DNA of 64,000 nt from a virus. Lineage: Duplodnaviria > Caudoviricetes. The stretch lies in the IMG/VR virus record IMGVR_UViG_3300031555_005762, positions 9,367 through 73,366 of that record. One strand, written 5' to 3'. The notes below the pieces were generated by a model that worked only from the letters and a program-made list of their open reading frames with translations, had not been told where the DNA came from and ran no database searches. The position numbers were made by a program, and so were the translations under genes. Positions 49,925-56,183 of the stretch are shown here, piece by piece; position 1 is the stretch's first letter; every line of letters begins with the position of its first letter.

Positions 49925-50126
49925 GAAATGCAGCTGGAGCGGAATTACCATCCGCCCTGACGGGATACACGAATTAGACGCTTGCCTATTTCAATTGAAG
50001 CAGAAACTGCGGAACGTAACGATAGAGATTCTGGAGTGCCCGGTCTGCGGTGATGTTTCTATTGGTTGGTATAAGCAGGACAATACAGAAGATATAACGG
50101 AGAATGAAGATGGTAGAAATTCGTGA
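49914..50126 (+). CDS. Small zinc-binding protein
   Basis: CKKC..C..CPVCG. Confidence 0.7.
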   Translation: MTCKKCSWSGITIRPDGIHELDACLFQLKQKLRNVTIEILECPVCGDVSIGWYKQDNTEDITENEDGRNS

Positions 50127-50400
50127 AACCTGTTATGACCATGATGCCGATTTTGACTATGGATGCGTAACTACGAATGAAGGCGTATGGATCCGTAAGA
50201 TTATCAAGCTGTCTGAAGAATATCCTGATCAGGTTTTAATTACCAAAAGGCCTGAGGACAATCAATCTTATCTTATGGCACGGGTTCCTAAATCTTGGTT
50301 TGTGATCCGCCCGCCGAAGAAGATGAATCTGAGCGAGGAGCAGAAGGATGCTCTCAGAGACAGAATGGCGAAAGCCAGAGAAAAAAGAAAGGAAAACTGA
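50104..50400 (+). CDS. Hypothetical protein
   Basis: 98 aa; C-terminal IRPPKKMNLSEEQK..RDRMAKAR. Confidence 0.75.
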   Translation: MKMVEIRETCYDHDADFDYGCVTTNEGVWIRKIIKLSEEYPDQVLITKRPEDNQSYLMARVPKSWFVIRPPKKMNLSEEQKDALRDRMAKAREKRKEN

Positions 50401-50630
50401 TGGCGTTTAATATTTGCGTGATAATTGGTATTGTAATACAAGGCATAATCATCATCTGGCTGGCTAAGCAATGTGTGGCGCATAATTTTGCTCTTGCGGC
50501 AATGCTTGCCTACTTTCAGGCATTAGCAACAGACCTTGGCTACCCGAAGATTATCGAAAACGATGATGTTGATTCCGATGAGCTTCGGAAATGGGTTCAC
50601 GCTAAAAAGGAAACAAACGGAGATACCTGA
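50400..50630 (+). CDS. Small membrane protein
   Basis: TGATG-coupled start, hydrophobic N-terminus. Confidence 0.6.
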   Translation: MAFNICVIIGIVIQGIIIIWLAKQCVAHNFALAAMLAYFQALATDLGYPKIIENDDVDSDELRKWVHAKKETNGDT

Positions 50631-50631
50631 T

Positions 50632-50811
50632 ATGAAAAAGCAAAATTGCAAAGGTTGCATCTGGTTAGACACTTGTCTTAACAAGACAGAAACAGATGAG
50701 GCTTGTGAAGATTATTTCACGGACGAAGAAGACAATCTTGTTAGGCACCTGACTAACCAAAGAAGAGAATATCAAAAGGAATGGGACATTTACGTACAAG
50801 ATGCAGACTGA
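50632..50811 (+). CDS. Small Cys-motif protein
   Basis: CKGC...C...CEDY. Confidence 0.65.
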   Translation: MKKQNCKGCIWLDTCLNKTETDEACEDYFTDEEDNLVRHLTNQRREYQKEWDIYVQDAD

Positions 50812-50822
50812 GAGGTTAGATC

Positions 50823-52478
50823 TTGACAAGCAGACCTTTATATACATATAAGTTCAAGTCTTCCAGATTGAAGGAAGCTAAATATGATCTGAATATATCT
50901 TTCAAGGAAGCAAAAAAGAGAAATGAAGTAATCTCGCTCGCTGATTCTCAGATTCTGCGAAGCATCCGGTACATACAGGGGCGAGAGATCGATTACGAGG
51001 AACTGGAACGGCTGATCTCCAGAAGAGATTATCTCCGGCGGCAGAAGGGTGCTCGAAGAGAGTATACTGAGTTACAGGAAACGCAGGATAAGATTAATGA
51101 TATGCTGATGGTTCCTGAATATGTGACGGTTTTTATAGAGGAAAGCTCACATTATGAGTATATTTTCAGAAACGGCATTCGCCTAAATGGAAAGACATAC
51201 AAACGCCTATCTTGTTCTGCCGGTCAGGCAAGAAACTCGACAGTGGTTCTATGTGATACTGAAATCATAGACAGGCTCAAAGAGATCTTAAACAATGGGC
51301 GTGATATGTCGAAGCCGCTGGCCCCCAGTAAGTTCAATGCATATTTTGGACTCGCTGGATCATCAACTCATATTGTGTCCGAACCAAAGTTTATTGTTAT
51401 CCGGGACTATGAAAACACAACGTCATTCATGGCGAACTATCTTACGGAAAATCCGGACTGGGACAGAGACGACACGCTGGATGTACGGATGATCGAAGAT
51501 ATGCCCATGAACCGCACGGACGGCATGGGATTGATTTCTCCGGAACTGTCCGAGAAATGGGCCAAGGAACTGGGTCTTGATTACATACCGGCGCAGTGGT
51601 GTATCCGTCAGTCCTTTATCAAAGGAATGGTTTGCACCTTCCCTATCCATCAGTTCTGCGAAGAAGTGGCTGGCGGGAATTATATGGTGGAAACGATCTA
51701 CAAAGACGAAGCCGGTAATCCGATTGTGGCTGACCTGCGGGATTACGATATGATTCTGACGGAGTCTCAGTTTAAGCTGTGGGACAGCTACCCTTCTCTG
51801 GATGTGTACATAGAAAATTATCATAAGAATCACCTGTACTGGGGCGTCAGCCAGTTTACACCGAAACAGGCCAAAGATACACTTACACTGAATTATCAGT
51901 TTATACAGACGCTTGATCTGGATGAGGAAGGTGTAAGAGAACTGTGCGGGCAGTTTGTTGACTGGATCAGCGGTGTGTCCTGTGACAATTATTCGTATAT
52001 GCTTCTTTATCTGATGGGTGTTGGAGACGACGAGGACAAGTTGCGAAACTGGATGCGAAGCAGCGACAACTGGTGGCTGAAGTCTCTGATGATGTGTCCA
52101 GACCTGATGAATGATAAGTACACACGGGCAAAAATCCGGGATCTGATACGGAACCGGATTCAGAACGGCTGCATGGGTGAGATTTGTGTAGATGGAAACT
52201 TCCAGGTGATGGTATCGGATCCGTATGGGTTTATGCAGCATGCCTGCGGTCTTCCGGTGACGGGGCTTCTGGGCAAGGACGAATTCTATTGCAGCTACTG
52301 GAATGAGCGTGGTGTTACGCAGGTGGATTCCATGCGATCGCCTCTTACATATCGCAGTGAGCACGTTATTGCGAATCTGGTGAAGAATGAAGAAACGGAG
52401 AAGTGGTATCGGTATTGTTATCTTGGGTTTATTCTGAATTATCATGGACATGATACAGTGATGTACGCCGGGTCGGAT
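50823..52478 (+). CDS. yonO: YonO-like single-subunit RNA polymerase, exon 1 (552 aa)
   Basis: YKRL..SAGQAR, DGMGLISP, QWCIRQ.F.KG, TESQFK, RSPL, ends ..YAGSD; full spliced product predicted at 925 aa. Confidence 0.85.
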
Positions 52479-53586
52479 CAATCGGGTTCTGCCTTATGGC
52501 ATAACATGGTGAACCAGCAGAGCTGGGTGTCTGCATACGCAGGCTAACGGGGGACAGCTACGGGCGCAAGCCTATGCCAATCCCGTGCGAAATTTGGTGT
52601 TATATCAGAGAATGGGAGGTTAATGGAATATAGAGAAATCCCTTTTTTAAGAGGGTATAAGATCAGTGAATACGGAGATGTTTTATCCAAACGGAATGGG
52701 AAACCATTAAGAATCTATGCAAAACCATTAGGTGACGATAGATGTTGTATCCGTGAAACGTATTATCTCATATCAGAGCTTGTTGCATCAACTTATCTTG
52801 GTGAAATGGATTTGGATGTTTATTGTGTATGTCATAAAGATGGAAATCAACATAATAACCATGTATCCAATCTTGAGTGGCATAAACGAAAGAAAGATTT
52901 GATATATAAACCTATACCAGGATATCCTAATTATGAGATATCTGAGCTGGGCGATGTATATAATCTTGTGTATCGAAAGCATATGGGAGCCCATCCCGAT
53001 CAGGACGGTTACTATAAAGTTCATATATCTAATAATGGTAAGACAGACACTTGGTTCGTACACCGTCTTGTAGCTCTTACATATTTAGAGAAGCCGGAAG
53101 GTTGCAATGTTGTAAATCATTTAGATTCTGATAGGAAGAACAATGATTACAGGAACTTGGAATGGACTACTGCTCAAGGGAATTATGAGCATGGTATGCT
53201 TTATGGTTATAATCAGCCGCAAGGTGAAAATAATCCTCGTAGTAAATTAACAGAAGATCAAGTAAAAGACATCCGTTATTTATTTTCGAATGGGTACCGT
53301 GTAGCTGATATCCAAAAGAAATATGATTTTGTACGTTGGGAAGAAATAAAGAATATTGTGACTTATAGAGCGTGGAAAAACGTAAACTGATCTAACACCA
53401 ATAAACGTGTAACGACTATCCCTTGGCTCCCCGGCTAATAAATGGAGCAATAGGAGTACGGCGGCCGCGAGGTCGTGGGTGAGAACCCCTTAAATGGAAG
53501 TGCCATGCCTCAACAATGTTGAGTGAAGATATAGTCTACTCCGTGGGTATGTACCCAGAAATATCCCGAAAGGGACGGTATAAAGG
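52479..53586 (+). mobile_element. Group I intron 1 (1108 nt) carrying an HNH gene
   Basis: U|exon end, terminal G; Q CAATCCCGTGC, R GTGTAACGACTA, S GAAGATATAGTC; intron AUCGG complementary to the 3' exon UCGAU (P10). Confidence 0.9.
52623..53390 (+). CDS. Intron-encoded tandem NUMOD4-HNH homing endonuclease
   Basis: Two NUMOD4-HNH units (CHKDGNQHNNHVSNLEW; NHLDSDRKNNDYRNLEW); GGGAGG RBS; AT-rich. Confidence 0.9.
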   Translation: MEYREIPFLRGYKISEYGDVLSKRNGKPLRIYAKPLGDDRCCIRETYYLISELVASTYLGEMDLDVYCVCHKDGNQHNNHVSNLEWHKRKKDLIYKPIPGYPNYEISELGDVYNLVYRKHMGAHPDQDGYYKVHISNNGKTDTWFVHRLVALTYLEKPEGCNVVNHLDSDRKNNDYRNLEWTTAQGNYEHGMLYGYNQPQGENNPRSKLTEDQVKDIRYLFSNGYRVADIQKKYDFVRWEEIKNIVTYRAWKNVN

Positions 53587-53592
53587 TTCGAT
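53587..53592 (+). CDS. yonO: RNA polymerase micro-exon 2 (TTCGAT = Phe-Asp)
   Basis: Lies between intron 1 terminal G and intron 2 start; restores GSD-FD-YD. Confidence 0.85.
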
Positions 53593-53929
53593 CAAATGGT
53601 CGCGCTGCGTAGCGATGCGCAGATGAAAATGTGGTGAACCTGTAAATACAGGGTGTCGCCGGGACGGTTAGGAACCGCAGGAAATGGCGGTTTATCCGGC
53701 GGCTGACAGGGGAGGCTGAATGAAGTATGCTAATCCTGTGGCAAGCGTGGAAACACGAAGCTCAAACGACTAACCCTTGGCCAGATGGCAATAGGTGTAC
53801 GGCCCCGGTGAAATTCCGGGGCGGGTGAAATTCCCTTAATTGGAAGTGCCACACACCTCTCAGAGGTGATGATATAGTCTAATCCCGATGGAAACATCAT
53901 GAAATACGGCGAAAGCCGGGGTTCAATTG
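53593..53929 (+). mobile_element. Group I intron 2 (337 nt, no ORF)
   Basis: IGS GUCG pairs CGAU; R AAACGACTA, S GATGATATAGTC; terminal G. Confidence 0.9.
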
Positions 53930-54226
53930 TATGATATAGTAGCCAGTACATCAAACAAAACCATGATTAACGGCGTATACCGGAATGAACTTCCTGTTGT
54001 ATACGATCCTCCTAAACCCAAGAAGATACTCTTTACTGATGAAGACCTGTATCGGGCAGACACATTCGGTTTCGGGTCTATTATCGGGAGTATTACCAAC
54101 AAGAGTTCTATTGCCTATTCCCTGCTCCCTCTCATTGAACGGGACTATGGGAAAGACAGTGAGGAATACAAGCTGACTGTGTCGAGATTACAGCAGTGCT
54201 GTGCGGCACAGTCGAGACAGATCGAT
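53930..54226 (+). CDS. yonO: RNA polymerase exon 3 (99 aa, YDIVASTSN...QSRQID)
   Basis: In-frame continuation completing DFDYD; IG.ITN and QID motifs. Confidence 0.85.
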
Positions 54227-54568
54227 AAAATTTTGTCGCTTTACGCAGCGATGCGTATCGAACAATGTGGTGAACCTGCAGATGCAGGGTGTCCGCTTTA
54301 CGTATAGGATCAACAGGAAATGGTTGATAAAAAGCGGGCTGACCGGGGAAACCGTAGCGGGTCGTGCCGTCGGCAATCCGGTGCTTGAAAACAAGTCCAA
54401 CGATCATCCCTTTGGCCGTGGAATTCGGCAACAGGAGTAGGGCTGTCAGGCATGGCAGCGGGTGAGAGTCCCTTAAATCGAAGCGCCACACAACTCTTTG
54501 AGTTGATGATATGATCTACACCCTGCCCCGTCCGGGGGCGAAATACCGGGAAACCGGGGGTATTCAGG
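54227..54568 (+). mobile_element. Group I intron 3 (342 nt, no ORF)
   Basis: Strong similarity to intron 2; compensatory P7 GAUCA/UGAUC; IGS UUUU-GUCG pairs both exons. Confidence 0.9.
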
Positions 54569-55387
54569 AAAACGAAGATCGGACAGGTTGTCAAGGGTAT
54601 TCCGAAGGTTTGGATTGAAAAGCAGGACGATGAGTTCTACAACCGGATCCTTCTGAATAAGTATCCGTACTTCTTTAAGTACCGGTACAAAGGTGCTCAT
54701 GATGACTACAAAAAATATGAGGAGGAATGCAACTCCGAATGCAAGTACAGATTCCGGATGCAGCTTGCGGATCTCCTGAGGATGGAGAAGTACACGCCGG
54801 ATCAGGAGGAATTCCTGAAGAACTACTATAAATATATGCCGGTGATTTACAGCGATTCGCCGATGAATCTTCTGTGCCGTCATATTGAGGGGATAGACTT
54901 CGGAATCCGGGAAAAGATCCGTGGGGACGGGAAATTTGATTATCATATACTGATCGACAAAGACCATCCTTACACGGAAGAAGAATATACTGCCGTTGTA
55001 AAGATTTTCGGAGAATACAACGTGATTGCCAAGGCTATGGCGATCCGCAAGGAGGGGGTTTCTCAGGACGATCCGGATTTCTGGGCATACAGCAGATACA
55101 GAGTGTTCTGCGAATCCTGTCTGGACGAAATGGCTGCCAGTCTTTGCGACATGATTCTGGTGACCAACTGTCTTGTCCGTTATTTCTACGAAGATAAACC
55201 GCGATCCAACAAGGAGCTCCTTTGGTCAGTTGCAGGTTCCTATCTTTATGGAAACGTCTGCAAAAATGTTGGGAAGCGAACAGTTTTTTATCCGTTTGTG
55301 GATCCGGATGGGGATATTACATATTTGAATAAGCGTTATACCATGCGGGAGGTGACACTCGATGATCCAGAATCGGTACAAGTATGA
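54569..55387 (+). CDS. yonO: RNA polymerase exon 4 (KTKIGQ...; 272 aa)
   Basis: Open frame from 54569 is in frame with the listed ORF 54758-55387; contains KYPYFFKY. Confidence 0.85.
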   Translation, partial: KTKIGQVVKGIPKVWIEKQDDEFYNRILLNKYPYFFKYRYKGAHDDYKKYEEECNSECKYRFRMQLADLLRMEKYTPDQEEFLKNYYKYMPVIYSDSPMNLLCRHIEGIDFGIREKIRGDGKFDYHILIDKDHPYTEEEYTAVVKIFGEYNVIAKAMAIRKEGVSQDDPDFWAYSRYRVFCESCLDEMAASLCDMILVTNCLVRYFYEDKPRSNKELLWSVAGSYLYGNVCKNVGKRTVFYPFVDPDGDITYLNKRYTMREVTLDDPESVQV

Positions 55388-56183
55388 TGAGATCGGATAC
55401 GCGGAAGAGATTTTACGGTGCGGTTTCATAACGAGTCATGTATACACAGAAATGTGCATCCTCGTTTTGTATTACCGGGATTTTATGGGGTACAAGCCGA
55501 AACAGTGTAAAGAAGCGCTTGTGAAATTTTGTGAAGAACGGTGGCCGGATTATGAACCCGAGACACATTATGTGACTATCAACCGGGCGATTCGGGCGGC
55601 AGAAAAACATATGCGTCTTGTGACGGTCGGGTATGTAAATGTATTCCGTGAGGACTTTGAGGCAATTGACAGCTACGATGTGAGCTATGATCACAAAAAG
55701 CTGATGTTCACAATTCTTGTGAGTCTTCGGTTGGACAGGTATTACCGGATGCTGAAATTTGACCGGGAATATAAGAGTAACATCTTCTATGGGACAGATT
55801 CTGTGATGCGGAACATTAAGAAGCTGGCCTGTATTCCGAAGGCAGGAGATCTGAACATGACGATGATCCCGGATCTTATTGCGGCAGGAGCTATTACCCC
55901 TCTGCATCGCGGACGGCTGTATTTGGATTTTTTGGATAAGTGCAGCCAGTCCGGAGAATGTGTCATGGAGGTTACCTGCTATGATGATATCGGTTTATAT
56001 TACGATTTATATAACAAGCAGAAAAATGTGACGCTTTGTGAAGTATGTAGTAAGCCTTTTCGGAAGAACAGCAATCGTCAAATGCGGTGTACAGACTGTC
56101 GAGTAAAGGTGAACCGGGAGAGGAAGAATCAGTATATGCTCGAATACATGAGACAATACCGTACGAATCGGCAGGTAAATTAG
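55362..56183 (+). CDS. Conserved protein with C-terminal zinc ribbon, coupled to the RNA polymerase
   Basis: CEVC..F...NRQ.RC.DC; overlaps the polymerase stop. Confidence 0.75.
   Translation: MIQNRYKYDEIGYAEEILRCGFITSHVYTEMCILVLYYRDFMGYKPKQCKEALVKFCEERWPDYEPETHYVTINRAIRAAEKHMRLVTVGYVNVFREDFEAIDSYDVSYDHKKLMFTILVSLRLDRYYRMLKFDREYKSNIFYGTDSVMRNIKKLACIPKAGDLNMTMIPDLIAAGAITPLHRGRLYLDFLDKCSQSGECVMEVTCYDDIGLYYDLYNKQKNVTLCEVCSKPFRKNSNRQMRCTDCRVKVNRERKNQYMLEYMRQYRTNRQVN

Follow-up and report, generated by a model that had tools for sequence, protein, structure and literature searches.

The 64,000-nucleotide (nt) stretch of DNA analysed here (the window) makes up most of a 73,366-base virus record of IMG/VR (IMGVR_UViG_3300031555_005762), and the host of the gene described below is an SPbeta-like phage known from this metagenome contig. 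With a probability that we put at roughly 0.87, positions 50823-55387 on the plus strand form one gene for a 925-amino-acid (aa) single-chain, two-barrel RNA polymerase of the YonO type, which is interrupted by three self-splicing group I introns of one family. The inserts at the first two sites divide the catalytic aspartate (Asp) triad of the enzyme and are separated by an exon of 6 nt. A second contig (P0001) is 99 % identical.

The open reading frame (ORF) that begins at 50823 reaches a stop at 52547, while protein homology already ceases at 52478, i.e. after the residues ..YAGSD. Exon 1 (50823-52478, aa 1-552) terminates in ...GGGTCGGAT, its final GAT codon specifying the first catalytic Asp, and is followed after the first insert by the micro-exon TTCGAT (exon 2, 53587-53592), which encodes Phe-Asp and thereby the central Asp of a DFDYD triad. 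Exon 3 (53930-54226, aa 555-653) opens with Tyr-Asp, i.e. the third catalytic Asp, and ends in ..QSRQID (DNA ...ATCGAT), and exon 4 (54569-55387) contributes aa 654-925 and the stop codon, all four exons lying on the plus strand. Joined, they amount to 2778 nt, i.e. 925 aa plus the stop, and read ..YAGSD-FD-YDIVAST.. and ..QSRQID-KTKIG.. (hyphens within sequences mark splice junctions); the predicted spliced junctions are GGGTCGGAT-TTCGAT-TATGAT for exons 1-2-3 and ATCGAT-AAAACG, i.e. CAGATCGAT-AAAACGAAG, for exons 3-4. An initial annotation, made from the letters of the DNA, had proposed that removal of 52479-53586, 53593-53929 and 54227-54568 yields a single 925-aa frame with junctions following the U and G rule of group I introns, and its coordinates proved exact: no internal stop is present, every 5' exon ends in T (in fact all three in GAT) and every insert ends in G.

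The same annotation had assigned the product to the YonO-like polymerases and placed the first two inserts within the DxDxD triad, and both assignments are borne out by homology. Exon 1 matches the Pfam RdRP family PF05183 with 45.2 bits (cut-off 23.8, E 7e-12) and phrog_8308 with an E value of 5e-117, while the latter family is matched by the exons colinearly at positions 61-538, 554-626 and 647-845, the last stretch corresponding to exon 4. The yonO gene of SPBc2 is found by tblastn with 26 % identity (E 4e-27), and the best phage match is an uninterrupted 924-aa coding sequence of Bacillus phage BUCT082, with 53 % identity over exon 1 (tblastn). In a three-way alignment, the spliced protein and the intronless BUCT082 homologue are free of gaps at all three junctions, reading AGSDFDYDIVASTS and AGSDFDYDIIATTS, respectively, across sites 1 and 2, and QSRQIDKTKIG and QSAQIDKAKIG across site 3. 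The DFDYD motif, which is complete only in the spliced product, lies opposite DFDYD of BUCT082 and DNDGD of YonO in this alignment. This gap-free alignment, together with the colinear phrog_8308 matches, is far beyond chance. In addition, the intronless relative L116 shares 79 % identity over the full length with all three sites empty, and its DNA around site 3 is nearly identical to the window's exon junction. No match was found in a megablast search of positions 50000-56000 against phage genomes or in a PDB sequence search with exon 1. For the SPbeta enzyme, the Asp triad is essential for catalysis and transcription of the phage late operon has been described (PMC5467207). By analogy with SPbeta YonO, and with that enzyme only, the window polymerase would synthesize RNA and transcribe late genes, and late transcription would then depend on splicing, as the initial annotation had suggested (PMC5467207).

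The TTCGAT exon is real. It is required to restore SDFDYD as found in BUCT082, and the identical micro-exon lies between two introns in L110 (64 % protein identity to the window; a Logan contig from run ERR4096287), which reads ..GGTGCAGAT, a 466-nt intron, TTCGAT, a 395-nt intron and TATGAT.., and in L112 and L113 (62 % identity, from two ENA samples), which read ..TCAGAT, an HNH intron, TTCGAT, a LAGLIDADG intron and TTTGAT... Two adjacent, related introns in a metagenome assembly might raise the suspicion that 52479-53929 is one composite insert, i.e. a twintron or a single large intron, or else an assembly artefact in which TTCGAT is no exon. We consider this extremely improbable, given that without TTCGAT the protein would read SD-YD and lose a conserved triad, present in BUCT082, L004, c-st and YonO, while the end of intron 1 and the start of intron 2 match single-site orthologues exactly (L106 and L107 at site 1, L004 and c-st at site 2). 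Moreover, the recurrence of the same micro-exon in contigs of three other samples (L110, L112 and L113) and an intron identity of 51-63 %, too low for a repeat mis-join, argue against an artefact. Two other candidates were rejected, namely inteins, since the inserts contain in-frame stops and are not read-through multiples of three, and split subunits, since a two-codon piece is no subunit and no credible start was seen for exons 3 and 4.

The three inserts, which had been described beforehand as related group I introns each following a GAT codon, are 51-63 % identical in pairwise comparisons, and a family profile scan of the 64 kb window revealed no copy beyond these three. Intron 1 (52479-53586, site 1, 1108 nt, terminal G at 53586) forms P1 between ggau-C (exon bases in lower case) and GGUUC and carries an endonuclease ORF in its P6 loop, i.e. 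within the P6 stem UUGGUGUUA/UAACACCAA. Introns 2 (53593-53929, site 2, 337 nt, terminal G at 53929) and 3 (54227-54568, site 3, 342 nt, terminal G at 54568) are devoid of ORFs and form P1 between cgau-CA and UGGUCG and between cgau-AAA and UUUGUCG, respectively, all three introns lying on the plus strand. Domain-by-domain folds revealed the same architecture in all of them with every core helix intact: P1 with the U.G pair at the splice site, P2, the 5' strand of P3, two hairpins, P4-P5-P6 and the 5' strand of P7, followed by P7.1, P7.2, a small hairpin, the 3' strand of P3, P8, the 3' strand of P7, P9 and P9.1 with GAAA loops, and the terminal G. The sequence blocks that had been reported as shared are indeed present in all three inserts, and blocks such as AAUCCNGUG, AACGACUA and GAUAUAGUC resemble the classical P, Q, R and S elements. 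The compensatory change that had been noticed in P7 of intron 3 was likewise recovered: where introns 1 and 2 have GACUA/UAGUC, intron 3 and its orthologue in L108 have GAUCA/UGAUC, amounting to two compensatory pair changes.

Covariation lends further weight to this fold. In an alignment of nine ORF-less family members, with the structure derived from intron 2 itself, 88.7 % of the paired cells can form pairs, versus 70.4 % after shuffling (none of 500 shuffles was as high) and 37-45 % in slid registers, and changes on both sides were observed in 65 of the 95 pairs. By helix, 97 % of the cells are paired in P3, 87 % in P4, 96 % in P6, 100 % in P7 and 96 % in P8, with P9.1 within 96-100 %, and the U.G pair of the splice site occupies alignment columns 8 and 21 in all nine rows. 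The outer two pairs of P3 are Watson-Crick in 44 of 44 distinct IMG/VR cores, with four pair types at each (shuffled mean around 17.5). Furthermore, 13 out of 13 introns have the U.G pair at the splice site, the terminal G and a guide that changes in step with the exon. In the window the guide follows the exon as ggau/GGUUC (intron 1), cgau/GGUCG (intron 2) and cgau/UGUCG (intron 3), and in relatives agau/GUCU and ggau/GUCC are seen. With P7.1, P7.2 and the small hairpin between P7 and the 3' strand of P3 in all three introns, the modelled core of the family appears IA2-like, to which two extra hairpins between P3 and P4 are added. These hairpins, located at 53639-53703 in intron 2 and at equivalent places in introns 1 and 3, are conserved, the first being a stem of five base pairs with a loop of 3-4 nt directly after GGUGAA and the second being closed by GUC../..GGC, and in both, every cell is paired (100 %) throughout the family, in which numerous compensatory changes are seen.

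Several observations count against the reading of a polymerase gene with three self-splicing introns. No match to the Rfam group I model RF00028 was found anywhere in the window at the gathering threshold of 50 bits, and the family members in 11 related loci stay below this threshold as well. In a permissive scan, intron 2 was matched over the full model length (positions 1-253) with 35.8 bits and an E value of 6.9e-7, while the 3' half of intron 1 reached 12.4 bits and intron 3 gave no match, all three introns remaining below the cut-off. Since the Rfam threshold is not reached, the case for group I introns rests on their anatomy. We know of no pair of P3-P4 hairpins in the textbook group I core or in IA2 models, and these two hairpins may explain the low Rfam scores. 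Further, P1 comprises just four exon base pairs, the record is a metagenome contig estimated to cover around 43 % of the genome, and the splicing of the three introns is predicted from DNA. Finally, the CGAU of the micro-exon serves intron 2 as P1 substrate, and P10 of intron 1 (AUCG at 52481-52484) has no other plausible partner; this overlap leaves room for interference between the introns or for skipping of the micro-exon.

Some of these features, i.e. the short P1 helices and the sub-threshold Rfam scores, together with the lack of an endonuclease in introns 2 and 3, could also be taken as signs of a decaying gene in which at least one insert no longer splices and from which no functional YonO-type polymerase is made. 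Such decay seems very unlikely, because the four exons are free of stops and conserved, sharing 53 % identity with BUCT082 and 79 % with L116 over the full length, the core helices are intact in all three introns, and diverged phages keep the same introns at identical sites and show compensatory changes in them, a pattern that points to selection on the RNA structure.

The protein encoded within intron 1 (52623-53390, plus strand, 255 aa) is a predicted HNH homing endonuclease. Its ATG is preceded at a distance of 3 nt by a GGGAGG ribosome-binding site, and the sequence matches Pfam HNH_3 in two stretches (44.2 bits, cut-off 24.8, E 1.4e-11) and NUMOD4 (36.5 bits, cut-off 23.4, E 5.7e-9). The PHROG HNH endonuclease families match residues 3-47, 61-91 and 94-199 separately. 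The protein consists of two NUMOD4/HNH_3-like modules and looks tandem-duplicated, residues 1-91 and 94-199 each comprising a NUMOD4-like segment followed by an HNH motif.

For a functional gene with three introns, the following course of events can be proposed. In each intron, the internal guide would base-pair with the four final bases of the exon (GGAU or CGAU), placing the U.G pair at the 5' splice site, and the intron would be excised after transcription by a guanosine-initiated two-step transesterification. The ligated messenger RNA would then read ..GSD-FD-YD.., restoring the Mg-binding Asp triad, of which the micro-exon would supply the central residue. Since the micro-exon holds all exon bases needed for P1 of intron 2, the flanking introns can in principle splice independently. 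Both would be unable to dock the micro-exon at the same moment, since its CGAU would be claimed by P10 of the first intron as well as by P1 of the second; the two dockings cannot coexist, and either splicing order is conceivable. At the DNA level the introns are mobile, intron 1 probably by means of the HNH endonuclease that it encodes, and introns 2 and 3 may have spread through co-conversion or with the help of endonucleases acting in trans. Homing elements usually insert into the best-conserved motif of an essential gene.

A possible adaptation of introns to an exon of 6 nt can be seen in the three tandem cases (the window, L110 and L112/L113), in which P1 of the downstream intron uses four, six and six exon bases, respectively, and never extends beyond the micro-exon. 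Introns at site 2 that have no upstream intron, on the other hand, pair with up to eight exon bases. The shorter P1 in this small sample of tandem cases fits an adaptation to the micro-exon. The tandem cases other than the window (L110, L112 and L113) come from ENA and Logan contigs; in IMG/VR, a strict pattern for the tandem junction, in which TTYGAT and NAAA follow the 3' end of a site-1 intron, gave no matches. The shortest inter-intron exons of bacteria and phages that are named in PMC10136302 measure 23 and 34 nt.

It is tempting to speculate that the tandem introns act as a switch. If splicing ran from the 5' site of intron 1 straight to the 3' site of intron 2, the 6-nt exon would be lost, and as this comprises exactly two codons, the frame would be kept and the product would be a full-length polymerase without the central Asp, i.e. 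catalytically dead and possibly dominant-negative. The ratio between inclusion and skipping, or a splicing order forced by the relative rates of folding and splicing, could then tune the onset of late transcription. Exon skipping between tandem group I introns has been documented for Twort orf142 (23-nt exon) and the Coxiella 23S rRNA (34-nt exon) (PMC10136302), introns 1 and 2 agree fully in their P7 strands and to 62 % overall, the CGAU bases would be contested between P10 of intron 1 and P1 of intron 2, and the tandem layout is present in three lineages. Against this, the guides of the two introns differ (GGUUC and GGUCG), and distinct splice-site recognition suppresses skipping (PMC10136302); crossed P3 strands of introns 1 and 2 would also mismatch at two of seven pairs. 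L116, BUCT082, L007 and L106-L109 lack one or both introns and thus do not require a regulatory role. Considering that close relatives manage without the introns, we regard such a switch as unlikely; if true, it would constitute an RNA-level timer or dose control on the phage late-gene polymerase.

The polymerase gene is frequently interrupted among its relatives. When the 120 best homologue clusters of exon 1 were sorted by the length of their gene calls, 71 were uninterrupted (around 890-945 aa), around 30 were 550-585 aa long, i.e. around 18 ending in ..G[SA]D at site 1 and around 12 ending in ..DFD at site 2, and around 16 ended in ..QID at site 3 with a length of around 650-685 aa. The contig DNA of relatives displays every combination of empty and occupied sites (percentages are protein identities to the window). 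Site 1 is occupied in L106 (80 %), whose intron carries the same 255-aa HNH ORF at the same place as in the window, in L107 (73 %), where the intron is devoid of an ORF, and in L109 (59 %), again with an HNH ORF. Site 3 is occupied in L108 (80 %), and sites 1 and 3 in L115 (58 %). An intron at site 2 was found in L004-L006 (57 %, DFD-GD, with an HNH ORF), in Clostridium phage c-st (34 %, DMD-GD), as well as in L038 and L043, while L110 and L112/L113 have the tandem at sites 1 and 2, and L007 (54 %), BUCT082 (53 %) and L116 (79 %) have no site occupied. The site-2 intron of L112/L113 harbours a LAGLIDADG ORF (L112, 6084-6935) in place of the HNH ORF seen at this site in L004-L006, and different endonuclease families have thus invaded the same intron lineage.

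These interruptions have consequences for annotation. The c-st gene (CST179/178/177), which an intron of this family likewise interrupts at site 2, is deposited as separate N-terminal and C-terminal YonO homologues, and the gene of phage vB_BsuS-Goe11 is split into yonO_1, a hypothetical protein and yonO_2, with no intron annotated in either record. As around four in ten of the closest homologue clusters are truncated in gene calls, databases systematically mis-annotate such polymerases as N- and C-terminal fragments.

Beyond close relatives, a signature from the P3'-P8-P7' region (GGAAGTGCCA, 12-35 bases, GATATAGTC) matches 95 loci in IMG/VR, 56 of which are flanked by a YonO-like ORF on the same strand; the latter include distant homologues with 22-31 % identity and further cases at sites 2 and 3. 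The family is therefore strongly, not exclusively, tied to yonO-like genes. A fourth insertion site was found in distant YonO homologues (22-30 % identity), in which the exon ends in ..GCCAT. It is represented by L014 and around 25 similar loci of IMG/VR sample 3300045988, lies between the equivalents of residues ~654 and 739, and its intron has a very short 3' tail after P7'. The idea of the initial annotation that the family is specialised on xxGAT sites is thus upheld at the level of the family, considering the 56 of 95 signature loci in YonO-like genes and the recurrence of sites 1-3. As to the codon itself, GAT is common before the introns and not obligatory, since one relative with an intron at site 3 has ATTAAT and the fourth site has CAT.

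The same annotation's view that the family had expanded within one gene calls for a qualification: the three sites were not colonised from within this genome. Intron 1 is 83 % identical to its orthologue at the same site in L106 and 73 % to that in L107, and intron 3 is 78 % identical to that in L108, while the three window introns are 62-64 % identical to each other in the same comparison. A maximum-likelihood tree of 17 intron cores, whose base composition is heterogeneous, supports the clades of the window's intron 1 with L106 and L107 (97/96) and of its intron 3 with L108 (98/97). All three window introns fall within a clade of eight rows (92/97), with intron 2 unplaced and deeper branches open. 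Site labels need four changes on this tree versus 7.7 when shuffled, and none of 200 shuffles was as low. As same-site orthologues are closer than the window's own copies, the introns are site-specific lineages predating this phage, and the window has accumulated three mobile lineages rather than experienced a private burst of intron copying. A further, improbable reading has the family moving between GAU sites of the gene through reverse splicing, with only four bases as a guide.

More canonical group I introns, above the Rfam cut-off, were also encountered near members of this family. One of them (L043, 5042-5308, 91.7 bits) lies in the same YonO-like gene, around 180 nt upstream of the site-2 intron and near residue 509, and another (L108, 8742-9067, 80.1 bits) in a gene downstream of the polymerase. 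In L004 (13485-13638), a drum RNA (88.5 bits in Rfam) is immediately followed by a DUF3800-XI RNA (62.5 bits), around 3 kb downstream of the polymerase gene.

The surroundings of the gene resemble the yonO-yonN region of SPbeta, with an HU-like gene downstream of the polymerase in the window and YonJ_N and YonG_N genes downstream in relatives. Directly adjacent, a 273-aa ORF (55362-56183) overlaps the polymerase stop by 26 nt and is conserved at this position in L106, L107, L108, L116 and BUCT082. Its C-terminal CxxC...CxxC segment resembles residues 780-819 of the YonO tail (pairwise E 0.003), so that the ORF may represent either a C-terminal module split off from the polymerase or a partner of this enzyme.

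Group I introns in phage genes, even three in a single gene, are textbook knowledge. A close parallel to the window is orf142 of Staphylococcus phage Twort, a single gene interrupted by three self-splicing group I introns (Landthaler & Shub 1999, cited in PMC10136302). Two of them are closely related, IA2-type introns that flank a short exon, and the cores share P7.1 and P7.2. The systems differ in the host gene and in the internal exon, i.e. 23 nt in Twort compared with 6 nt coding for a catalytic residue in the window; in addition, the window family has two extra P3-P4 hairpins and scores below the Rfam cut-off, and skipping has been shown for Twort while it is hypothetical here.

Introns have also been described in multisubunit RNA polymerase genes of jumbo phages, namely in PhiPA3, whose HNH endonuclease nicks the PhiKZ gene (cited in PMC11878797), and in gp273/274 of 201phi2-1 (PMC2919709). 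As in the window, a mobile group I intron with an HNH ORF resides in a phage gene for a two-barrel RNA polymerase, and by analogy with PhiPA3 the window intron could be used in competition with intron-less relatives. Unlike the window, where a single-chain enzyme is interrupted three times and twice within the Asp triad, these phages have single introns in genes for beta/beta'-like subunits. The window gene shares the polymerase family and a neighbourhood with an HU-like gene downstream with SPbeta YonO, whose Asp triad is essential (PMC5467207), but the SPbeta yonO gene is uninterrupted. SPbeta itself carries group I introns in the ribonucleotide reductase genes bnrdE and bnrdF (Lazarevic 1998, 2001, cited in PMC8270828), which resembles the present case in that essential, conserved genes of SPbeta-like phages are affected, with the host genes being different. 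A literature search found no paper on introns in yonO-like genes.

New in the present data are the recurrent 6-nt exon within a catalytic triad, the yonO-like genes as an intron hot spot and a family that escapes the Rfam group I model. The two extra hairpins possibly account for this escape, and with a model built for the family many more copies would come to light. The hot spot in genes for YonO-type polymerases concerns one intron family, which uses at least four insertion sites and occupies them in all combinations among relatives. In the tandem layout, the same six bases serve one ribozyme as its 3' exon and the following one as its complete P1 substrate, and they also encode the central catalytic Asp. 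The presence of this layout in three diverged phage lineages indicates that it is viable, and being viable and recurrent, it offers a natural system in which to study how ribozymes arranged in tandem escape mis-splicing.

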